Source: a virus (lineage: Duplodnaviria; Heunggongvirae; Uroviricota; Caudoviricetes). From it: a stretch of 11,953 nucleotides of DNA. Where the stretch lies: positions 1 to 11,953 of IMG/VR virus record IMGVR_UViG_2645727563_000006; one strand, written 5' to 3'. The number at the start of each line of letters is the position of its first letter. Position 1 is the first letter of the stretch. Shown here piece by piece: positions 1-11,953 of this stretch. Under the pieces are notes generated by a model, which did no database searches, was not told the origin of the DNA, and saw nothing but the letters and a program-made list of their open reading frames with translations. A program made the translations under genes and the position numbers.

Positions 1-1122
1 CCCCGCCGCTAAAATGTTACGAGCGCCGTTTACATCGGCGTTCGCTGTATATCCACATACCTGGCATCTGAATTTACTTTGTGACAGGCGATTTTCTTTC
101 GCGGTATGACCACAGCACGCGCAACGCTGGCTTGTGTACGCTGGCGGCACTGCCAGTACCTGACCGCCATGCCAGAGCTGCTTATACTCAAGCTGGCGGC
201 GCATTTCATACCAGCCCTGATCCAGTATCGAACGGTTTAAACCTGATTTTGCCCGGACATTGCGACCCGGCTGACTTATCGTACCCGCCGCTGACTTTGA
301 CATGTGTTTAACCTTCAAATCCTCAATGACAATCATTGCGTGGTTTTTGCTGATGATCGTTGTGACTTTATGAAGGTAGTCTCTGCGGATATTTGCGATA
401 CGGGAGTGCAGTTGCTGTATTTTGCGTTTCTGCTTCTGCCAGTTGTTGCTGAATCTGACCTTGCGGCTTAACTGGCGCTGAAGTCTCGCCAGCTTTTTCT
501 GGTTTTTCTGGAAACTGTTTACAGGCTCAAAGACTGTGCCATCTGACAGCGTGGCGAGTTTAGCCACGCCAGCATCCAGTCCGACCATTGATACTGAAGG
601 GTGAACAGGAGTGGATACCTCTCTTTCTGTCTGAATACTGATGTACCACTTACCGCAGGACTGGCTGACAGTGACATTTTTCACAACACCCGTGACCTGA
701 CGGCTATTCCGGTAGCGCATCCAGCCAAGTTTCGGCAGAAAAATACGGCTGTTTTCCTGATCGAGCTTAACGCCCTGCGGGTAGCGGAATGCATCATTCT
801 GTCCCCGCTTTTTGAATCGGGGAAAAGCAGCCCGATTCTGGAAGAAGTTTTTGTAAGCCCGCTCAAGGTCTTTCAGTGACTGTTGCAATGGCTGTGAGGG
901 AGAATCTTTAAGCCATTCGGTTTCAGTGTCTTTTTTCCACTCAACCAACCAGGAAGCCATTTTCGTGTAAGGGATGTATTTTTTACCGGCCTCATGATTC
1001 TCATTCTGAAGCGCCAGAGCACGATTGAAAACGAAACGACATGCGCCTGCGAAGCGCCTCATTTCACGCTCCTGTTGACCATCTGGTCTTAATCGGAATT
1101 TGAATGACACCTGTTGTTTCAT
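1..1122 (-). CDS. tnpB: IS200/IS605-family TnpB (OrfB) RNA-guided-endonuclease-like protein; 3' end runs off the window
   Basis: Open minus-strand frame from ATG at 1122-1120 to position 1 (374 codons; absent from the ORF track because it is edge-truncated). Translation begins [20 protein letters not shown] and contains RuvC-I-like GLDAGV, RuvC-II-like IVIEDL, a CxxC...CxxC zinc finger (CACCGH...CQVCGY) and ADVNGARNI, the arrangement typical of TnpB. No obvious Shine-Dalgarno precedes the ATG. Confidence 0.85.
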
Positions 1123-1169
1123 GTCACTATTTTAAGCAAAAATAGCCGGGAGGAAAACTGTGCCTTATA

Positions 1170-1193
1170 TCCCCACTATGAGGAGCGTGGGGA
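1170..1193 (-). repeat. Subterminal imperfect palindrome (TCCCCAC / 10-nt loop / GTGGGGA), candidate IS left-end hairpin
   Basis: Direct reading: TCCCCAC at 1170-1176 and GTGGGGA at 1187-1193 are exact reverse complements; the position upstream of tnpB fits the ssDNA hairpins of IS200/IS605 ends. Confidence 0.5.
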
Positions 1194-1221
1194 GCGGCAC
1201 ATTGGATAAGGCGTAACAGGG

Positions 1222-4209
1222 ATGAGCTTAAGCGATCAGGTGGTTATGGCCACCAGCATAGAAACGCTGATCGAGCTGCTAAAGAACCTGCCCGATTACG
1301 GGCGGGTTTCGTATGTGGTGACAGCGAAGGGAGACGAGGTAAAAACGGCGTTTGATATCGTCGATGCCTCAGCTCTTTTGGTATCCAATACTCTGGATGG
1401 GAAAATTAATCCAGACTATCCCCAGGAACTTCAGCCGCGCGATCGGACCCGCGCATCCAGCCTTCTTCAGGTTAACCAGATATCCAAGGATTTGCGTCCT
1501 GCCCAGCTTACCGATTCCGGTTTATCCAGCCATGGTGCGCCAATAATTGGTGAGGACAATGCCGTTGAGTCAGGTAATGGGCGGACCATGGGGATCATTA
1601 AAGCCTATCAGGACGGTAATGCGGATCGGTATCGGGAGTACCTGATTGAACATGCGACCGAATTCGGCATACGGCCTGAAAAGGTTGAATCAATGACGGC
1701 TCCGGTACTGGTGCGCCGCCGGTTAACGAAGGTTGACCGTGTTCAGTTTGCCAAGGACTCAAATATTTCTGATCTCCAGGAAATGGCAGCCAGTGAAAAG
1801 GCTTTTGTTGATGCCGACAGCATAACACCGGCGATGATGGCGTTGTTTAACCCGTCAGAAAGTGGAGATCTGCTTAGCCGCAGTAATGACGCGTTTATTC
1901 GCGGATTCATGACGCAAGTTGGTGCCACACAGGCGGCTGGCCTTGTAACTGAAGATGGGCGACCAACACGGCAACTTGTTGACCGTATACAAAACGCGAT
2001 CTTTGCCAAGGCATATAAGGATGCGCGCCTGGTAAGGATGGTTGCAGAAGAACCTGATCCGGATATGCGTAATGTTCTGACGGCGCTTAATGCGGCAGCC
2101 AATGATTTTGTCCAGATGCAGGCTTTATCAGGAGAAGCGCACAAGCAGGCTGTGACAACTATTGTTGATGGCATTGAGACAGCGGATAGCCTCGATAAAA
2201 AGGCGCTGGCGGCATTGAAAGATGCGGTAGACCTGGTAAGGCAATCGAAGGAGTCAGGCCAGCATATTACCGATGTTATTGCTCAGGGGGATATGTTCAG
2301 CGAAACGGCCCCGGAAGTGAAAGCACTCGCGTTGTTCATCGTCGCGAATAACCGTAGCGCGAAGCGTATGGCCACCGCCTTTAAGTTGATGGCGCAACGT
2401 ATCAATGATGAGTTACAGCACCAGGGCCAGGCGCTCGGGGATATGTTTGGCGGCGGCGATGTGTCGTTACAGGATATCCTTCGCCAGGTGTCTCAGGAAC
2501 TGGAATACGAAGGCATGCAAGGGATATCCGGCGGTCTTTTCGAGTCCGTTTCCGGCGGTAGTTACAACGGTGTTGCTCCGTATACCAGTTTGCTATTACA
2601 TCGGGCATCCGGCATCAAAGACATTATTCATCTGATCAGGCTGCTTTCCCGCACAGATCCCCAGGATGAACAGCTTGTACAAGTGCTTGCGCATTTTGTT
2701 CGAATGCCTGTTGCCGACGTGAAAAAATGGTGCCGATTATTCGGTATCAGCAATTCGTTACTTCGCGGCTTGTTAAATCACGCATCCTCCCTTGGGCGCG
2801 ATGGCTTTGACGAGATAGCGCAGGCGATAAAAAACGGAGATATGCCACCAGCTATTGACTGGTTTTCCATTCGCCCAACCAGGGTGAAAGCATTCCTTAG
2901 CGCGGCGCATTTGGCATCACCATTGGCAGAAATGGTTCAGAGGTTGTCGCTCATATTCACAGACCATACCGCGTTGGGTGATCTGACTCTGGACGAGATG
3001 AAAGAAGCCTCCATTCAGTGGGCCGATCAACAAAATGAGGTTAACTCAGACTTCTTGCCAGCATTCAGGAAGGCCGTTAGTAAAGCTGATGATGCCCGTG
3101 GAATTCTGAAGGCATTTAAGGCATTGCAAAGTCAGGTTAATAAACATGTCGGTGATATCGATGGGGTAACGGCGGAAGGCAGGGATATCCTTAAAGAGCA
3201 CGGCATAACGCCAGAGTTTATTGATGAGATCAGGACTGATATGCAGCGTGAGGTCGTATCGTCCCTGCAAATTGTAGCCAGGGCGTTGGCGGATGCTAAT
3301 CCGAAGAGTGCGGCCATTGTTAACCGGGTTATTGGTGATATTGAAGCATCGGAGGGCATGGGGGCGCTGAAACTCTTCCTTTCGCGAGCGTTTAATCCTA
3401 ACGGCAATATTCTCCCTGGCATTATTGGTGAGGCTAAAAAGTATGTCAGTGAAGAAGAACTTGAGCAGCTTGACCAACTACTTAAGCGATTCTCATACAA
3501 CCCGCAGACACGCTGGCAAATGAATCAGCGAAGTATGGGTTCGGTCCACGAGAAAGTGTTATCTGCCATGAACAGTGCGATCGCAAACTCATCCGTATCT
3601 GAAGAAAAAGCTCTTGAGTGGGCCGACTCTTTTATCACGGAAGAAGTGGAAGAAGCCCGCGCTGGACAGAATGGTGGGATAGACCTGCGCAAGGAACTTG
3701 CTGATATTTATCGCCTGACCGGCGGTAAAATTTCGACCTTATCAAAGGTGGTTCACCACAAGGGAAGGGCATATGCAAATCTTAATGGTGTTGTTGCTGT
3801 CAATTTGAACGATGAAAATGCAAGTGCACTGTGGCACGAGCTGGGTCATCATCTTGAGTACAGTAACCCTGGTTTGTTAGAGAAAGCCCGGTCATTCCTG
3901 AAGGCCAATGTTGAAGGGGATAAGCCATCTTTCGTTAATATCGGTGGGCGTGGCAAGCCTGAATGGTGCTTCAGATCTCGATTGAGTAATATTTATATGG
4001 CGAAGGTATACCCGCCAGTCTCAGTGAGTAACTCCGGGAAAATTCGGCAGAAATCACCGACCATTTCCAAAACGTCAGCAACGGAAGTATTCTCTATGGC
4101 TCTTCAGTTGTATCATGACAAAGAGGCCGCTGCCGCATCACTGATGAATGGTGACGGATTGCTGGAACTGTTATTAGGTGTGGCAAAGGAGCTAAATAAT
4201 GCAGATTAA
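1222..4209 (+). CDS. Large 995-aa protein with a C-terminal HExxH (HELGHH) zincin-like metallopeptidase motif; candidate virion-associated polyvalent or anti-restriction (Dar/Ddr-class) protein
   Basis: Single 2988-nt ORF. WHELGHHLEY motif near residue 870. N-terminal QPRDRTRA is weakly reminiscent of ParB-like GxRRxRA, a low-confidence resemblance. ATG at 1222 has a poorly spaced RBS; an in-frame ATG at 1246 preceded by AGGTGG is an alternative start. Size and neighbourhood resemble the P1 darA-operon large protein (DdrB-like), from memory only. Confidence 0.8.
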   Translation: MSLSDQVVMATSIETLIELLKNLPDYGRVSYVVTAKGDEVKTAFDIVDASALLVSNTLDGKINPDYPQELQPRDRTRASSLLQVNQISKDLRPAQLTDSGLSSHGAPIIGEDNAVESGNGRTMGIIKAYQDGNADRYREYLIEHATEFGIRPEKVESMTAPVLVRRRLTKVDRVQFAKDSNISDLQEMAASEKAFVDADSITPAMMALFNPSESGDLLSRSNDAFIRGFMTQVGATQAAGLVTEDGRPTRQLVDRIQNAIFAKAYKDARLVRMVAEEPDPDMRNVLTALNAAANDFVQMQALSGEAHKQAVTTIVDGIETADSLDKKALAALKDAVDLVRQSKESGQHITDVIAQGDMFSETAPEVKALALFIVANNRSAKRMATAFKLMAQRINDELQHQGQALGDMFGGGDVSLQDILRQVSQELEYEGMQGISGGLFESVSGGSYNGVAPYTSLLLHRASGIKDIIHLIRLLSRTDPQDEQLVQVLAHFVRMPVADVKKWCRLFGISNSLLRGLLNHASSLGRDGFDEIAQAIKNGDMPPAIDWFSIRPTRVKAFLSAAHLASPLAEMVQRLSLIFTDHTALGDLTLDEMKEASIQWADQQNEVNSDFLPAFRKAVSKADDARGILKAFKALQSQVNKHVGDIDGVTAEGRDILKEHGITPEFIDEIRTDMQREVVSSLQIVARALADANPKSAAIVNRVIGDIEASEGMGALKLFLSRAFNPNGNILPGIIGEAKKYVSEEELEQLDQLLKRFSYNPQTRWQMNQRSMGSVHEKVLSAMNSAIANSSVSEEKALEWADSFITEEVEEARAGQNGGIDLRKELADIYRLTGGKISTLSKVVHHKGRAYANLNGVVAVNLNDENASALWHELGHHLEYSNPGLLEKARSFLKANVEGDKPSFVNIGGRGKPEWCFRSRLSNIYMAKVYPPVSVSNSGKIRQKSPTISKTSATEVFSMALQLYHDKEAAAASLMNGDGLLELLLGVAKELNNAD

Positions 4210-4507
4210 AATCGCAGCGCCATTAGGCGGAGATGCCATTATCGAATTTGATGATAATGAAGAAGTTTCCGGGCGTTTAAGCATTATCTCCGGTGACATT
4301 ACCGAGGACATGATCGCTGAAGCCATAGCTGGAGCAAATCCCAATAGCTATATGGGATTCGTTAACACCCTTGATGCTCCCGCAAGTGATGTTCTCCGAA
4401 CGCTGCATCTTTACGCTGGCTGGTTTGTTGATTGGCCAGCAGTAGATGGTGGCGATGAGGACGACGACGATGATTTTGGTGATCATGTAGACCAGATCGT
4501 ATATTGA
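4199..4507 (+). CDS. 102-aa highly acidic protein, translationally coupled to the upstream 995-aa gene; function unknown (candidate DNA-mimic, immunity or partner protein)
   Basis: ATG at 4199 overlaps the upstream stop by 11 nt. The product is rich in Asp/Glu with a C-terminal acidic tract DGGDEDDDDDFGD. Followed directly by a strong terminator. Confidence 0.65.
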   Translation: MQIKIAAPLGGDAIIEFDDNEEVSGRLSIISGDITEDMIAEAIAGANPNSYMGFVNTLDAPASDVLRTLHLYAGWFVDWPAVDGGDEDDDDDFGDHVDQIVY

Positions 4508-4510
4508 AGA

Positions 4511-4539
4511 AATCCCGCCAATCGGCGGGATTTTTTTTT
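4511..4539. terminator. Rho-independent terminator between convergent genes
   Basis: 9-bp GC-rich stem AATCCCGCC / loop AATC / GGCGGGATT followed by a run of nine T on the plus strand; an A-run precedes it, so it may also act on the convergent minus-strand gene. Confidence 0.8.
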
Positions 4540-5500
4540 AATCGCTTTCCACTTCTTCCGTAGTGTTTTCTTGCAGTTCTGTTAATGCAGCACGACACAG
4601 GCTCCGGGCATTGGCTATAGCCACACTTTTGACTTCATCCGTCATCGTGCAGGTAATGTACTGATCGAGTTCTTCAGCGCGGATGATGCTTTTGCCAATC
4701 AGAAACTGTATTTGCCAGAGCAGATCAGCATCCATAATCAGAATTTCTGCCGGGCCTTCAGGACCAGCCGGGAAGGAAACATAAGACTGTTTGCCCAGGC
4801 CGATAACTCGACAACTTGCTTCAAGAATTGCGCGATTGAGGTCTGACTTTGTAACTGATACAGGTTGATTTTCACCTGCGATTACGCCGTTGACATGGAT
4901 GTGGAATGGCATGTAGCTTGAAATTCGCTCTACTTTCCATACGCCAGCAAGCGATCCTTCATGCAGCACAATGGGGGTAACCGCGAGTTTCATCTCACCA
5001 TATAACTGCTGGCAGATAGCTGGATTGCTGAATACATCCAAAGGTTCACACTCAAACAGCGGCGCAATCTGTATGAGGTCCATCATGGTCATACCAGGGG
5101 TACGAGCAGTAATGAATCTGCGCATGCCAGTATCCATTGTGCGCCAGATAGCTACACCATGCTTTTTGCTCACTTCTTCAGTAAAGCCAAGGTGGCACAT
5201 GATGGTTTTTTCGATAGCCAGATCAGAGATAGAAACCTTTTCGCCAGGTACACCATCATTATTGATGGTCACTTCGACACTCTGGCCATTACGCAGGCGG
5301 TATTGAATTGTTTTAGTATTTTGTGCTGTCATAGTCTTTTCTCTGCTTAAAAACTGATGTATTGCGCCTTCAGGTGGGTCAGGAATGTTTTCCCACCAGC
5401 GAAAGCAATATCTCGGGGTGTTCTTTTCGTGAAAAGCGCGTGCCATTGCCAACTTTGGCGTTTTTTTGCGAGTTCGTGCTTTTGTCGGCGTCTTGACCAC
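4538..5500 (-). CDS. Hypothetical protein downstream of ssb, 264-320 aa depending on start; no motif recognised
   Basis: Long minus-strand ORF. The ORF-track start at 5500 is GTG with a Lys/Arg/Thr/Pro-rich 56-codon extension; the first ATG is at 5332-5330 (MTAQNTKTIQYRL...) with a weak purine-rich RBS. Start is ambiguous. Confidence 0.6.
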   Translation of the reverse strand: MVKTPTKARTRKKTPKLAMARAFHEKNTPRYCFRWWENIPDPPEGAIHQFLSREKTMTAQNTKTIQYRLRNGQSVEVTINNDGVPGEKVSISDLAIEKTIMCHLGFTEEVSKKHGVAIWRTMDTGMRRFITARTPGMTMMDLIQIAPLFECEPLDVFSNPAICQQLYGEMKLAVTPIVLHEGSLAGVWKVERISSYMPFHIHVNGVIAGENQPVSVTKSDLNRAILEASCRVIGLGKQSYVSFPAGPEGPAEILIMDADLLWQIQFLIGKSIIRAEELDQYITCTMTDEVKSVAIANARSLCRAALTELQENTTEEVESD

Positions 5501-5534
5501 CGCTTTTCTTTCAGTCGTTTTTTACTCATAAACT

Positions 5535-6023
5535 CTAAAACGGAATATCGTCGTCAAAGTCCATTGGAGGTTCGTTATTGGCGTTGCTCTGAGGTTTACC
5601 GCCACCACTGTATTGCTGGTGGTTTTGAGGTTGGTTTGATTGCCCCCAGCCATTTGAGGACTGTGAATCGTCACGGCGAGCGCCGATCATTTGCATGGTG
5701 CCGCCCTGGCTGACGATAATTTCCGTCGTGTAACGTTCTACACCGACGTCATCTGTCCACTTACGGGTTTTAAGTTTCCCTTCGATGTAGACCTGAGAAC
5801 CTTTTCGTAAATACTCACTCGCAATTTCAGCAAGTTTTCCGAACAAAACGACTTTATGCCATTCTGTCTGCTCTTTCTGTTGGCCCGTTTGCTTGTCGCG
5901 CCATGATTCATTCGTTGCGATGCTGAGTCTTCCGACAGCGCCGCCATTTGGTATATACCTGATCTCCGGGTCTTGCCCCAGGGTACCAATCAGGATGACT
6001 TTGTTTACACCGCGTTGTGCCAC
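5535..6023 (-). CDS. ssb: Single-stranded DNA-binding protein
   Basis: Translation [23 protein letters not shown]... has an OB-fold SSB N-terminus, a Gly/Gln/Asn-rich linker and the canonical acidic C-terminal tail [11 protein letters not shown] start at 6023 with AGGT upstream. Confidence 0.95.
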
Positions 6024-6042
6024 TTATCTTACCTAATAAAAT

Positions 6043-6059
6043 AAATTAATTAGAGCAAT
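6043..6059 (-). promoter_or_regulatory. P1 C1-repressor-operator-like 17-mer (ATTGCTCTAATTAATTT, 16/17 to remembered consensus ATTGCTCTAATAAATTT) in the ssb-lyz divergent intergenic region
   Basis: Read directly on the minus strand; lies about 20 bp upstream of the ssb start codon. The consensus is recalled from P1 literature, not looked up. Confidence 0.5.
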
Positions 6060-6083
6060 AATGTATATCTTTGAAACGTAGCT

Positions 6084-6102
6084 AACAAGTGATTTGCATT
6101 AT
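6084..6102 (+). promoter_or_regulatory. Candidate late-type promoter element upstream of lyz: AACAAGTGA box plus CATTAT -10-like hexamer
   Basis: AACAAGTGA at 6084-6092 and CATTAT at 6097-6102, about 90 nt upstream of the lyz ATG; shares its 9-mer with the prt upstream region. Confidence 0.3.
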
Positions 6103-6192
6103 CCTGTGCCTTCTAAAGGGATCGAGTCAGTCGGTATTGGCTGTGAATGGGTGTTTGTCCTGGAGCGTAAAAAATTCGCTTATGAGGTCTTT

Positions 6193-6750
6193 ATGAAGGG
6201 AAAAACAGCCGCAGGAGGCGGTGCAATTTGCGCTATCGCGGTGATGATTACCATCGTGATGGGTAATGGCAATGTGCGAACCAACCAGGCTGGGCTTGAG
6301 CTGATTGGTAACGCTGAAGGTTGCCGACGTGATCCATACATGTGCCCGGCAGGGGTATGGACTGACGGGATCGGTAATACACACGGGGTAACGCCGGGTG
6401 TGCGAAAAACAGACCAGCAAATCGCCGCTGATTGGGAAAAGAATATCCTGATCGCTGAACGCTGTATTAATCAGCACTTCCGGGGCAAAGACATGCCCGA
6501 TAATGCCTTCAGTGCAATGACAAGCGCGGCATTCAATATGGGATGCAATAGCTTACGGACCTACTACAGCAAAGCGCGAGGCATGCGAGTAGAAACGTCC
6601 ATCCACAAGTGGGCGCAGAAAGGGGAATGGGTGAATATGTGTAACCATCTCCCTGATTTCGTGAACAGTAACGGCGTCCCCCTGCCCGGGTTAAAGATTC
6701 GCCGTGAAGAAGAACGCCAGCTTTGCCTGACGGGGCTTGTCAATGAATAA
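6193..6750 (+). CDS. lyz: SAR (signal-arrest-release) endolysin, T4-type lysozyme fold, 185 aa; matches the organisation of P1 Lyz
   Basis: ATG at 6193 preceded by GAGG. N-terminal Gly/Ala-rich weakly hydrophobic segment MKGKTAAGGGAICAIAVMITIVMG (SAR domain) carrying Cys13, then Glu42, Cys44 and Cys51 (NAEGCRRDPYMC) at the positions described for P1 Lyz disulfide-isomerisation control. The ORF-track start at 6094 is an upstream extension. Confidence 0.93.
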   Translation: MKGKTAAGGGAICAIAVMITIVMGNGNVRTNQAGLELIGNAEGCRRDPYMCPAGVWTDGIGNTHGVTPGVRKTDQQIAADWEKNILIAERCINQHFRGKDMPDNAFSAMTSAAFNMGCNSLRTYYSKARGMRVETSIHKWAQKGEWVNMCNHLPDFVNSNGVPLPGLKIRREEERQLCLTGLVNE

Positions 6751-6994
6751 ACTCCGGCAGCTCCGCCGACTTTCGACAATGAAGTTATCGCTGGCAGCGA
6801 TAGTTTTCGACTCGATTTTCATGGCGGTATATGTGCTTAATGAAACGTGGCCACTGGAACCGCTATTGTATGCCGGGCTTCGGCTGTGCCTGACTTTTTT
6901 GAGCATGGCTGCGAGATTGATGCAGCAGAAAGAAACCGCTTCAGATTGTCCACGCCGCGCGGTGCGCAAATATATGGCACGCAGGCGAAGATGA
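6743..6994 (+). CDS. Putative small membrane protein (83 aa, two hydrophobic segments, Arg-rich C-terminus) overlapping the lyz stop; candidate lysis-associated protein, doubtful
   Basis: ATG at 6743 overlaps the lyz stop (6748-6750) with GGGG 7 nt upstream. Segments LSLAAIVFDSIFMAVYVL and LLYAGLRLCLTFLSMAARLM; C-terminus RRAVRKYMARRRR. No homology can be asserted. Confidence 0.3.
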   Translation: MNKLRQLRRLSTMKLSLAAIVFDSIFMAVYVLNETWPLEPLLYAGLRLCLTFLSMAARLMQQKETASDCPRRAVRKYMARRRR

Positions 6995-7004
6995 TTTAAC
7001 CATT

Positions 7005-7021
7005 ATTGCTCTAATAAATTT
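7005..7021 (+). promoter_or_regulatory. C1-operator-like 17-mer ATTGCTCTAATAAATTT (17/17 to remembered P1 C1 operator consensus), probable Op51-equivalent upstream of c4-icd-ant
   Basis: Exact match to the recalled consensus; paired with an inverted copy immediately downstream. Confidence 0.6.
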
Positions 7022-7037
7022 GATTTATTAGAGCAAA
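7021..7037 (-). promoter_or_regulatory. Second C1-operator-like 17-mer in inverted orientation (TTTGCTCTAATAAATCA, 14/17), forming a near-palindrome with 7005-7021
   Basis: Reverse complement of 7021-7037 read directly; the two sites together form an AT-rich inverted repeat spanning 7005-7037. Confidence 0.5.
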
Positions 7038-7210
7038 TAACCTACCATCGAACACGGCTCTATTGATCTCATCGTCGTTCAGGCTTATAGTTCCACCGTC
7101 GTAGCAAATTCTGCGACCAGGTTTGACAGCCTGAATACGAATGCGGACAACCGCAGATTTCCGATATTGCGGTATTTTTGTGTCCGTAAACCACGTTACG
7201 CCCGAATTAT

Positions 7211-7287
7211 GGTGGGGCGTGATGGGGAGGCTTCGGCCTGCTGGTTTCATTCGTGCCAGTCTGTCAACCCTGTCACGTCCTGCCACC
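7211..7287 (+). ncRNA. c4: c4-like antisense repressor RNA of the immunity-I module (77 nt)
   Basis: 77-nt segment bounded by complementary ends GGTGG (7211-7215) / CCACC (7283-7287) with an internal AGGC-TTCG-GCCT hairpin. It contains CATTCGT (7248-7254) and CTGTCAA (7261-7267), complementary to ACGAATG (7320-7326, abutting the icd RBS) and TTGACAG (7291-7297) downstream, in the order expected for antisense pairing. Length and position match the P1/P7 c4 RNA; exact ends not verifiable here. Confidence 0.5.
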
Positions 7288-7290
7288 TGT

Positions 7291-7329
7291 TTGACAGCGG
7301 GTCGCAGGTTGTTAAACCTACGAATGAGG
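7291..7329 (+). promoter_or_regulatory. Candidate c4 target sites (b'-like TTGACAG and a'-like ACGAATG) in the icd-ant leader, adjoining the icd Shine-Dalgarno
   Basis: Complementarity to the two c4-internal segments read directly; GAGG at 7326-7329 is the icd RBS. Confidence 0.45.
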
Positions 7330-7337
7330 CCGTAACT

Positions 7338-7559
7338 ATGGTTAATGCCAATCCTTGCGCACGCCCTGAATTTATCTGGCGCTTTTACTCCTGCCAGAAA
7401 CGTCACTATCACTTCGTAATTGCACCGACAGAAGATGAGGCCCGCTCTCAGCTTCCTGACGCTCCCTGCATTTTCTCTGCCCGCTTTTCCACTGATTCGC
7501 GCAACTCTCTCAGTTACTGGTGCCTCCCTGTTAACGCTTCTGCTCAGGAGGGACTATGA
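7338..7559 (+). CDS. icd: Icd-like small protein (73 aa), translationally coupled to ant
   Basis: ATG at 7338 with GAGG upstream; stop TGA overlaps the ant ATG (ATGA at 7556-7559). The ORF-track entry 7167-7559 is an N-terminal extension that would overlap the c4 RNA and is probably not translated. Confidence 0.6.
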   Translation: MVNANPCARPEFIWRFYSCQKRHYHFVIAPTEDEARSQLPDAPCIFSARFSTDSRNSLSYWCLPVNASAQEGL

Positions 7560-8647
7560 GAACGTCATTAGTCACCCGTGAAGAAATGATTGAGGCAATT
7601 GAACAGCACACATCCTGTATCAGTACCAGGGATATACCGGGTGTTATTGCCAACTACTTCATGATCACCAAACAACTTTACCGGAGAAAGGACAAGAACG
7701 CGGTTCACCGTATCCTGCTGTCTGATATCCGCGAATACCTGCTCGAACAGGGGCATCTGAATTACGCAACCGTCGCAGCCGAAGCACGCAAGGAGGCACA
7801 CAGAATGAAAGCAACTAACGTTAAATCAGAAAAAATTCATGCACCTTCAGTTCGGGAATCGGAGCTGGTGGTTGTTCAGAATCAGTCTGATGAAATTCCC
7901 GTTCTGGAATGGCTGGGAGTGCGTGTCGTAACGACCGAAACTCTTGCTAGAGGGTATAGTACCGATGAAGCCAATATTCGTAAAAATTTGTCTCGCAACT
8001 CCGATCGCTTTGAAGAAGGCAAGCATTACTATCTCTTAACCGGTTCAAAGTTAAAGGAATTTAAAAGGCTAGTGACTATTAGTCACTTGGTTAGCAAATA
8101 TACAAGTCAGGTAATTCTCTGGACAGAGCGCGGCGCTGCACGCATGTCTAAGATCGTGGACACAAATGAAGCATGGGCATTCTTTGAAAAACTGGAAGAC
8201 AGCTACTTCCGACAAAAAGAACAGCAACCGGTCTCAATTCCCCAGACGCTTCCAGAAGCTCTGCGCCTGGCTGCCGAGTTGGCAGAACAGAAAATGCAAC
8301 TGGAACAACAGCTGGTGGCCGCAGCCCCTAAAGTCGATTTTGCCGACCGGGTATCAGTGGCCAAGGGGATCCTGATTGGGAATTTTGCAAAGGTTGTTGG
8401 ACTTAAGCAAAACGCGCTGTTTGCCTGGTTACGGGAGAACGGCATCCTGATTGCGTCCGGCGGACGTAAAAATGTACCGTTTCAGCAGTACATAAATGCC
8501 GGGTATTTCACGGTGAAAGAAGTGGTGCTGGATGATGAAGATGGATACCAGATACGGTTGACGCCCCAGCTAACGGGGAAAGGCCAGCAGTGGCTGACGC
8601 GTAAACTGCTCGATGCAGGTTTATTAAAGCCTGTAGCGGCTGAGTGA
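7556..8647 (+). CDS. ant: Antirepressor Ant (Ant1, 363 aa) with nested in-frame Ant2 start at 7805 (280 aa)
   Basis: Central region VTTETLARGYSTDEANIRKNLSRNSDRFEEGKHYYLL resembles the antirepressor N-terminal (ORF6N-type) domain and the C-terminal part resembles the KilA-C/Ant C-terminal domain. A strong internal RBS AAGGAGG precedes ATG 7805, consistent with P1 Ant1/Ant2 dual products. Confidence 0.85.
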   Translation: MRTSLVTREEMIEAIEQHTSCISTRDIPGVIANYFMITKQLYRRKDKNAVHRILLSDIREYLLEQGHLNYATVAAEARKEAHRMKATNVKSEKIHAPSVRESELVVVQNQSDEIPVLEWLGVRVVTTETLARGYSTDEANIRKNLSRNSDRFEEGKHYYLLTGSKLKEFKRLVTISHLVSKYTSQVILWTERGAARMSKIVDTNEAWAFFEKLEDSYFRQKEQQPVSIPQTLPEALRLAAELAEQKMQLEQQLVAAAPKVDFADRVSVAKGILIGNFAKVVGLKQNALFAWLRENGILIASGGRKNVPFQQYINAGYFTVKEVVLDDEDGYQIRLTPQLTGKGQQWLTRKLLDAGLLKPVAAE

Positions 8648-8654
8648 TTAAATT

Positions 8655-8677
8655 AAAAAGGCGGCCTTTCGGCCGCC
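8655..8677 (-). terminator. Rho-independent terminator downstream of pro (minus strand); the hairpin may also stop ant transcription
   Basis: GGCGGCC / TTTC / GGCCGCC stem-loop at 8660-8677 preceded on the plus strand by AAAAA (8655-8659), which gives a T-run after the hairpin on the minus strand. Confidence 0.6.
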
Positions 8678-8760
8678 CGTTGAAGCAGGAACCCACCGAA
8701 ATGATTCAGGCGACAGCCTTAACGTAGCAGGAATCCACGCCCGTCAGGGCGTGGAGGGTG

Positions 8761-11491
<2,731 letters not shown>

Positions 11492-11526
11492 TTAATTAGA
11501 ATAATTCGCATCGTGTTTGAACGGAA

Positions 11527-11547
11527 ATTTAACACTAGTCACTTGTT
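11527..11547 (-). promoter_or_regulatory. Candidate late-type promoter element upstream of prt: AACAAGTGA box plus TTAAAT -10-like hexamer (minus strand)
   Basis: Minus-strand AACAAGTGA (plus 11539-11547) followed 6 nt later by TTAAAT (plus 11527-11532). The same 9-mer occurs upstream of lyz at 6084-6092, followed by CATTAT. Interpretation as an activator-dependent late promoter is inference. Confidence 0.3.
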
Positions 11548-11558
11548 AAGGATTACCA

Positions 11559-11953
11559 ATGAACAAGCTATCTATGGGGGTGTTTCGCTGTTCAAGTGTC
11601 AGCGAAATATTGAAATACATTAGGGCAATAACATCTCACCGAGCGCCGATTAAATACGGCGTGGAAAAGGTGGAAGGCAAAAGCTATGACCGACTGCGCC
11701 GTGAGGCGAATCAGAAGGCGATAGATTTGCTTAATTCGCTGGTGGACGGCGCGACACTGACAGATGAACAGCGCCAGATCCTGGCTGGGTACACCGGTGA
11801 AGGCGGCATTGGCGGGTCCGTCTCCGAATATTACACACCAAAGCCGATCGCTGAAGGTGTCTGGGAGATCATGAAGCTCTACGGCGCGGACGTAGGTAAC
11901 ACTCTGGAACCATCGGCGGGAACCGGCGTTTTTAATGAGACAAAACCGGTTGG
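11559..11953 (+). CDS. darB: N-terminal part of an N6-adenine DNA methyltransferase-domain protein, probably a large DarB-like protein; continues beyond the window
   Basis: ATG at 11559 with AAGGA RBS; open to the window end (131 codons). Contains EYYTPKP followed by LEPSAGTGVF, matching the (F/Y)(F/Y)TP plus motif-I (xxPxxGxGxF) arrangement of N6-adenine methyltransferases. Divergent from prt, as remembered for P1 darB. Absent from the ORF track because it is edge-truncated. Confidence 0.6.
   Translation, partial: MNKLSMGVFRCSSVSEILKYIRAITSHRAPIKYGVEKVEGKSYDRLRREANQKAIDLLNSLVDGATLTDEQRQILAGYTGEGGIGGSVSEYYTPKPIAEGVWEIMKLYGADVGNTLEPSAGTGVFNETKPV

Follow-up and report, generated by a model that had tools for sequence, protein, structure and literature searches.

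The stretch of DNA studied here, referred to below as the window, comprises the 11,953 nucleotides (nt) at positions 1 to 11,953 of the IMG/VR virus record IMGVR_UViG_2645727563_000006, and the gene of interest in it is a short open reading frame (ORF) of 102 amino acids (aa) located at the 3' end of a gene that encodes 995 aa. The region shares 97-100% identity with phage-plasmids of the P1 type (Punavirus: P1, P7, SJ46 and RCS47), and on this basis the window is assigned to a P1-like phage-plasmid, the large gene to ddrB and the small ORF to hxr (P1_gp021). The comparative data collected below point to Hxr as a possible partner of the metallopeptidase (MPTase) domain with which DdrB ends. 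The coordinates of the features involved are collected in Table 1.

The product of the window ORF shares 98% identity with P1 Hxr and 97-100% with the annotated hxr products of P1, P7, SJ46 and RCS47, and its match to phrog_2292, a PHROG without assigned function, runs from residue 1 to 102 over profile positions 1-105. It is the same gene as in P1, found in the same position after ddrB and with the same overlap, and the window copy shows no difference of substance beyond the length of its Asp run. hxr starts with ATG and ends with a TGA codon at 4505-4507. In its product, 17 Asp and 6 Glu residues outnumber 1 Lys and 2 Arg; the computed isoelectric point (pI) is 4.05 and the net charge at pH 7 about -20, whereas the other seven proteins of the window have pI values of 5.0-9.1. 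Thus, the description given in the initial annotation, that of a highly acidic protein with a poly-Asp tract near its C-terminus, is borne out, the tract being a DEDDDDD run. The charge is shared equally, residues 1-82 and the tail DGGDEDDDDDFGDHVDQIVY carrying -10 each.

A Shine-Dalgarno sequence placed 7 nt 5' of the hxr start codon, inside the 3' end of ddrB, together with an 11-nt overlap between the two genes, is consistent with translational coupling. The initial annotation had put forward such a coupling to the large upstream gene, and the layout, which is the same in 80 of 80 contigs of P1-like elements, agrees with it. After hxr, the operon is ended by an intrinsic terminator, a 14-bp hairpin followed by a T-run (dG -21 kcal/mol, z -5.25), whose stability was equalled by 0 of 200 shuffled sequences; this hairpin is not among the sites listed by a consensus terminator scan.

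The annotation of P1 places hxr at the end of the late darA operon, whose gene order is lydA-lydB-hdf-darA-ddrA-ddrB-hxr. DdrB, DdrA, DarA and Hdf have been found in P1 virions, and Hxr is absent from the list (PMC9024508). This absence is weak evidence, because at least two tryptic peptides were demanded for each protein (PMC9024508) and Hxr yields a single readily detectable one, of 22 aa, the others having 4, 35 and 41 aa. The knock-down of hxr by CRISPR interference (CRISPRi) causes no plating defect, as with all the dar genes (PMC10695390).

DdrB carries an N-terminal ddrB-ParB domain (PF18763, residues 36-167, E 1.8e-39) and a C-terminal domain that Iyer et al. (2017) classed as a zincin-like MPTase (PMC5512222). 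Across P1-like and Vibrio-phage homologues the invariant elements of the latter are R..A, HExxH, E, Y, Y and E..SM..Q, and a weak match to anthrax lethal factor is also obtained. The most basic 40-residue windows of DdrB fall in residues 881-960, around and after the HELGH motif and inside the MPTase domain. It has been reported that DdrB is cut to ~76 kDa before packaging, and it has been proposed that the MPTase autoprocesses DdrB (PMC5512222). Such processing would offer a regulated step on which a partner could act.

Table 1. Features of the ddrB-hxr region, with positions given in window coordinates
Feature	Position	Strand	Basis
ddrB, 995 aa, virion-packaged Dar protein	1222..4209	+	PF18763, phrog_2299, P1 annotation
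C-terminal zincin MPTase of DdrB, residues 766-995, proposed target of Hxr	3517..4206	+	conserved motifs
HELGH zinc-binding motif, DdrB residues 872-876	3835..3849	+	sequence
Shine-Dalgarno sequence AAGGAG of hxr	4186..4191	+	sequence reading
Overlap of hxr start and ddrB end, with ddrB TAA at 4207-4209	4199..4209	+	sequence reading
hxr coding sequence, 102 aa plus TGA	4199..4507	+	98% identity to P1 hxr/P1_gp021; phrog_2292, E 2e-59
Predicted folded core of Hxr, residues 1-82, b1-b2-b3-a1-a2-b, net -10	4199..4444	+	AlphaFold2, 19-sequence alignment
Acidic C-terminal tail of Hxr, residues 83-102, predicted disordered, hydrophobic tripeptide at its end	4445..4504	+	low pLDDT
Asp/Glu run DEDDDDD, GAT/GAC repeats of polymorphic length	4454..4474	+	80 P1-like contigs compared
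Hairpin and T-run, intrinsic terminator between hxr and the convergent isaA-like gene	4506..4537		RNA fold

Conservation, predicted fold and genetic linkage of hxr

hxr is intact in 80 of 80 P1-like IMG/VR contigs, with the TAA of ddrB at +9..+11 in each of them. Its core is nearly invariant in this set, and the length of the Asp run ranges between 4 and 9 acidic residues, always in frame; the window copy has 5 Asp after DE. The GAT/GAC repeat that encodes the run is a microsatellite of polymorphic length that changes in multiples of 3 nt (loci L015-L094). Frameshifted or truncated Hxr variants are rare in the protein database (P0005, P0009).

A profile search run exhaustively and a word-indexed search together recovered ~19 full-length relatives with 30-46% identity and 95-105 aa. 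In these relatives seven residues, G53, V65, L66, R67, W75, W79 and P80, are invariant, R67 being the sole invariant basic residue, and acidic core positions are also conserved (E16, D19, D33, D78 and D83). All relatives are acidic, with a net charge of -11 to -22 for the whole protein and of -4 to -10 for the core, and in 19 of 19 homologues an acidic tail of 18-23 residues (net -7 to -13) is present, its last three residues being two hydrophobic ones followed by N, Y or H, most often ...IVN. Since hxr is intact in every contig, with changes of the run kept in frame, and since divergent relatives maintain length, key residues and charge, it is on comparative grounds a real, constrained gene and more than a chance ORF. 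A tandem duplication of Hxr, of 184 aa, follows a normal DdrB of 997 aa in one contig (ENA contig NODE_426, P0015; L238 8001-8555), where the first Hxr copy has a short acidic linker only. A doubled peptidase that would match this tandem was considered and discarded, as the DdrB that precedes P0015 has a single MPTase.

Hxr was modelled with AlphaFold2. With a 19-sequence alignment the mean predicted local distance difference test score (pLDDT) is 76.5, most of the core scoring ~82-90 and the loop 21-30 ~68; with a 5-sequence alignment the score is 60.7. Strands are predicted at residues 2-6, 12-16 and 28-32, with a short one at 76-77, and helices at 36-44 and 62-71, and pLDDT falls below 50 at residues 83-86 and 96-102 of the tail (block means 52, 45 and 38). 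Hxr is thus presumably composed of a beta-rich alpha/beta core and an acidic, disordered tail that starts at residue 83. Searches against Pfam, PHROG, PADLOC and PDB profiles returned its own PHROG only. A match of 38 residues (Hxr profile 36-73) to E. coli RapA (PDB 6bog and others; E 0.3) is sub-threshold and was judged to be noise. RapA is a Swi2/Snf2 protein, matched here at its C-terminal end, and DarB, which belongs to the same system as DdrB, has an SNF2-type helicase domain.

These data bear on the function that has been attached to hxr in databases. The annotation of P1 has labelled it since 2004 as "possible repressor; homolog of Xre", and many records of clinical plasmids have taken the label over in the form "putative repressor, Xre homolog". 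According to it, Hxr would bind operator DNA through a helix-turn-helix (HTH). A BLASTP comparison between Hxr and PBSX Xre does give 30% identity over 77 residues, in the register of HTH_3, with a pairwise E of 2e-5; however, as this is a single pairwise comparison, the value would not be significant in a database search. In profile matches, topology and charge, Hxr differs from Xre/HTH_3 repressors. No HTH family of Pfam is found at E <= 10 for Hxr or for its 60% relative, and although the PDB is rich in Xre-type domains, a 5-sequence profile of Hxr reaches no PDB chain at E <= 10 and the 19-sequence profile reaches RapA and CD109 noise only. The predicted order of three strands, two helices and a short strand is not that of a five-helix bundle, and the segment that aligns with the recognition helix of Xre is predicted to be non-helical. 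Moreover, the core is negative in all homologues, its charge of -10 in Hxr being incompatible with operator binding, and hxr closes a late structural operon, without a divergent promoter or operator. The label is regarded as unsupported, and the analysis as a whole indicates that it is wrong; a repressor role for Hxr is considered highly improbable.

The elements in which an hxr with 30-46% identity follows ddrB include a plasmid-prophage of Rosenbergiella, two contigs from metagenomes and Cronobacter phage JK004; the two genes overlap by 11 nt in the relatives with 30-40% identity and by 14 nt in JK004. The genes located beyond hxr differ among these divergent elements (toxin-antitoxin pairs, a CHAP protein, an Arc-like protein). 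In another locus (L176), a DdrB-like gene of 970 aa is followed by an Hxr relative of 100 aa. Phage D6 shares the operon lydA, lydB, hdf, darA, ddrA, ddrB, but its DdrB has only 454 aa, which correspond to the ParB half. The 10.4-kb region of this operon in D6 gives no hit with either the MPTase or the Hxr profile, whereas both find their targets in the JK004 and L176 controls. The same pattern as in D6 is seen in Acinetobacter phage ABMM1. As D6 keeps the ParB half without the MPTase and without hxr, hxr tracks the peptidase half of DdrB; in these genomes its linkage follows strictly the C-terminal MPTase half, and not the N-terminal part. The 454-aa DdrB homologue of D6 (orf25; L235 4492-5856) has a net charge of -22, and two unrelated ORFs, of 185 and 110 aa, replace the peptidase half and hxr.

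This linkage has to be taken into account when considering the function suggested in the initial annotation, that of a DNA mimic inhibiting restriction enzymes. In such a role, Hxr would present its negative surface or its tail to a host defence protein, for instance a type I restriction enzyme, BREX or RecBCD, and fill the site where this protein binds DNA, whether inside the cell that makes Hxr or once injected along with the DNA. A charge density such as that of Hxr, -20 over 102 aa with a pI of 4.05, falls in the range of Ocr, ArdA, UGI and the acidic anti-CRISPRs. Like Ocr (gp0.3 of T7) and ArdA, Hxr is small and very acidic and is carried by a mobile element that evades type I restriction; several acidic positions of its core are conserved, beyond mere composition, and its gene belongs to the operon for the defence-against-restriction (Dar) proteins of P1. 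Sequence, profile and fold searches reveal no likeness of Hxr to Ocr, ArdA or any solved structure, which is no bar in itself, given the very diverse folds of DNA mimics, and the absence of Hxr from the virion list counts for little for the reason given above. However, the model divides the charge of Hxr between a compact core (-10) and a 20-residue tail predicted to be disordered (-10), so that half of it would not lie on a rigid surface. Besides, the expression of ocr and ardA is immediate-early or occurs from the leading region, whereas hxr is late, and as the last gene of a late operon its product would meet the defences faced by incoming DNA only if it were packaged, while it is not among the listed virion proteins. 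It has also been reported that Dar protects in cis only, so that a co-infecting Dar- phage is still restricted (PMC12707154). This is the opposite of what would be expected of a titrating inhibitor, since protection in trans would be the outcome if the virion delivered such a mimic. Finally, hxr is lost in D6 along with the MPTase half, even though D6 has retained hdf, darA and ddrA as well as the ParB half of ddrB. The proposal thus finds no positive support beyond charge and gene neighbourhood, and it is regarded as quite unlikely.

Small ORFs after related phage metallopeptidases

The last ~230 residues of DdrB have homologues, with 21-32% identity, at the C-termini of otherwise unrelated phage proteins, several of which contain Phage_Mu_F domains and one a portal plus a MuF domain. 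The motifs shared by these MPTases are RAY, LWHExGHxxE, Y..K.Y and TEVxSMGLQ. The loci encoding them were collected from IMG/VR in a search led by Vibrio sequences (a search led by P1 returned P1-like loci only), resulting in 60 loci, of which 50, those with the peptidase at the very C-terminus, could be assessed. An ORF of 58-130 aa starting between -25 and +20 nt from the peptidase stop codon was present in 43 of the 50, and 33 of these 43 small ORFs encode a product with a net charge of -5 or lower. Counting unique peptidase sequences, 34 of 40 have a small ORF after them and 25 of 40 an acidic one, compared with 23 and 8 of 164 for the other large ORFs of the same loci, which were used as controls (Fisher 1e-17 for small ORFs and 4e-15 for acidic ones, in a post hoc design that counts related loci with no correction for phylogeny). 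A small ORF likewise follows the MPTase gene in the Vibrio phages VAP7, D509, Bakedbeans, 1.244.A and YC, where, with the exception of YC, its product is neutral or basic. One of the loci (L179; IMGVR_UViG_3300025135_000264) contains an ORF, ending near 2724 and open at its 5' side at the locus boundary, that joins portal (PF04860), MuF (PF04233) and DdrB-type metallopeptidase domains, and the next ORF, which overlaps it, encodes an acidic protein of 85 aa ending in ...DPDVVY.

The small ORFs fall into 16 families unrelated by BLAST, and those tested gave no Pfam or PHROG match. When the P1 Hxr subgroup is counted, the C-terminus is [V/I][Y/F]-COOH in 7 of 17 families, where it comes after a linker that is acidic or rich in proline; ~3% of the control ORFs have this ending. 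The charge of the peptidase domain and that of the partner are weakly anticorrelated (Spearman -0.35, p 0.018, 44 pairs).

It has to be noted that a similar arrangement was previously described. Jamet et al. (2017) found a metallopeptidase in 20% of MuF toxins, and 89% of the MuF toxin genes were followed by an ORF of <150 aa, for which an immunity function was proposed (PMC5576092). In addition, it was experimentally demonstrated that a prophage polymorphic toxin is neutralised by a small immunity protein that binds it (PMC11699363). As with the putative immunity ORFs of MuF toxins and polyvalent proteins (PMC5576092; PMC5512222), hxr is an ORF of <150 aa that adjoins, and often overlaps, the gene of a virion-packaged protein with a toxin-like C-terminal enzyme, and in both cases the linkage follows the C-terminal module and not the N-terminal part. 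However, the N-terminus of DdrB is ParB-like and not MuF, and its MPTase, instead of acting as a toxin, has been proposed to autoprocess DdrB. Furthermore, ddrB and hxr are expressed late, in a cell bound to lyse, and "immunity" that protects the producer is thus less obviously needed.

Several attempts were made to connect Hxr with these families beyond position. hhalign of Hxr against the Vibrio small-ORF family gives an E of 0.1, and single sequences give 0.08-0.16, so that homology between them is not claimed. The alignment with FAM2, the largest of the other families, is collinear, but its E values are 0.44 and, even with the family enlarged, 0.43, and jackhmmer started from Hxr does not reach past L176. 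A Foldseek search of BFVD with the Hxr model gave, among its hits of highest TM score, A0A4Y5TVF7 (TM 0.43/0.47, E 1.7, not significant), which is the ORF located directly 3' of the DdrB-like peptidase gene of VAP7, a striking coincidence noticed post hoc. This small ORF of VAP7 (L009 4759-5031; QDB73363.1, 90 aa) is annotated as 'tetraspanin-15', almost certainly wrongly. The C-terminal extension of the peptidase of Xanthomonas phage Rb1 was considered as a fused partner and set aside, since it gave no significant match. With regard to a DdrB cleavage site resembling the Hxr C-terminus, no consistent motif was found across five pairs.

Both the linkage and its recurrence are relevant to another possible function, in which Hxr would be an acidic effector independent of the peptidase, packaged or acting after injection: either an internal head protein that aids the loading or ejection of the Dar cargo, or an imitator of the C-terminal tail of single-stranded DNA-binding protein (SSB) that competes for SSB-binding host proteins. 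The operon products from hdf to ddrB, Hxr aside, are all head-internal proteins, and the tail of Hxr (...DEDDDDDFGDHVDQIVY; an acidic run and then ...DQIVY-COOH) shares its general form with the C-terminus of the Ssb encoded in the window, ...MDFDDDIPF. The gene for this Ssb lies at 5535-6023 on the minus strand, and its product has the classic acidic tail. Hxr has not been detected in virions, although virion proteomics is poorly suited to its detection, and most homologues end in ...IVN, which is not aromatic. A function of this kind would leave unexplained both the joint loss of hxr and the MPTase half in D6 and the presence of small ORFs after homologous MPTases on MuF proteins, and it is judged unlikely.

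Hxr as a putative partner of the DdrB metallopeptidase

Taking together the tracking of the MPTase half by hxr and the recurrence of small ORFs after related peptidases, we infer that Hxr is a cognate binding partner of the MPTase domain of DdrB, probably an inhibitor or an "immunity"-type protein. A probability of about 0.45 is given to this interpretation, in which the binding of Hxr to DdrB, the inhibition of the peptidase and the role of the tail are all putative. The initial annotation had contemplated, as an alternative to the DNA mimic, that the small protein neutralises a basic domain of the upstream one, and it is this second option that the comparative data favour, as hxr tracks the MPTase half and the most basic stretch of DdrB is found there.

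The process might be as follows. Hxr would be made in step with DdrB through translational coupling and would act as a dedicated binding partner of its C-terminal zinc-MPTase, with the acidic alpha/beta core and the flexible acidic tail docking onto the basic region of the peptidase. Until the processing of DdrB and its loading into the prohead, docking would prevent the peptidase from being active in the cell that makes it, or would maintain it in the proper state. Thus, Hxr would be the positional equivalent of the small "immunity" ORFs found after the toxin-like C-terminal domains of phage-packaged MuF and polyvalent proteins.

The inhibitors of serralysins, AprI/Inh, are small proteins encoded beside the protease whose active site they block by means of a terminal segment. 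They use the N-terminus and act in the periplasm. Carboxypeptidase inhibitors, directed like them at zinc metallopeptidases, insert a C-terminal tail. Inhibitors of these kinds are a possible, purely hypothetical, model for the tail of Hxr, and no sequence or fold similarity to them was found.

Several observations weigh against the proposed partnership. Hxr cannot be tied by sequence to the other small-ORF families (hhalign E 0.1-0.44; jackhmmer ends at L176), and the recurrence is therefore positional and not a demonstrated homology. The counterparts in Vibrio phages are neutral or basic, and acidity is thus not a universal requirement. A strictly required protease inhibitor might show a plating defect in the CRISPRi experiment, in which hxr gave none (PMC10695390), although it has to be considered that all the Dar genes are non-essential on the laboratory host used (PMC10695390). 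The statistics on small ORFs include related loci and were devised after the pattern had been seen. Finally, the tandem double Hxr after a DdrB with a single MPTase implies that the stoichiometry is not rigid.

A broader generalisation can also be envisaged, in which DdrB-Hxr would be one case of a widespread two-gene module. In such a module, a zincin MPTase at the C-terminus of a virion-delivered protein (DdrB, MuF or portal-MuF) would be kept latent by a co-translated small protein, whose free C-terminal tail would plug the active site, as a mimic of product or substrate, until assembly or injection. The small partners may belong to many families without detectable mutual similarity that share an acidic or proline-rich linker and a hydrophobic C-terminus. 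In this general form the proposal is considered doubtful.

With regard to the surroundings of the locus, window positions 1-1120 (minus strand, running off the window start) hold the 3' part of a tnpB of the IS200/IS605 family (insQ, 'RNA-guided endonuclease TnpB'). It has inserted between ddrA and ddrB, an arrangement shared with Salmonella phage SJ46 and the plasmids LT905089.1 and NZ_LR890336.1 (100% identity over positions 1-1300), and in this element the darA operon's late promoter is cut off by it from ddrB-hxr. On the other side of hxr, the isaA-like gene (4538-5500, minus) is uninterrupted, and P1 has an IS1 in this area, between isaA and isaB; the 320-aa product of the isaA-like gene matches phrog_2326 (function unknown) as its sole hit, with no match in Pfam or PADLOC. 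Farther away, at 7085-7137 and 7205-7290 on the plus strand, Rfam identifies a C4 antisense RNA with 69.8 bits and the a1/b1 sites that it targets with 57.1 bits, shortly before an antirepressor ORF (7556-8647, plus) with ORF6N and KilAC domains. Together they make up a c4-ant immunity module of the immI-like kind, flanked by the lysozyme/holin genes and by pro, in a place where P1 has nothing.

hxr is a long catalogued, uncharacterised gene, narrow in its distribution and dispensable for the growth of P1, a phage that is genetically tractable, and the interest of its reassigned role and of the recurring pattern of peptidase and small ORF is therefore moderate. If Hxr does control the MPTase of DdrB, it would join the Dar system of P1, which serves antirestriction and head loading, as a seventh component that has been overlooked, and it would provide a handle on how polyvalent virion proteins stay inactive until their delivery. 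The same logic would then hold for many MuF-type phage "toxins" that carry this peptidase.

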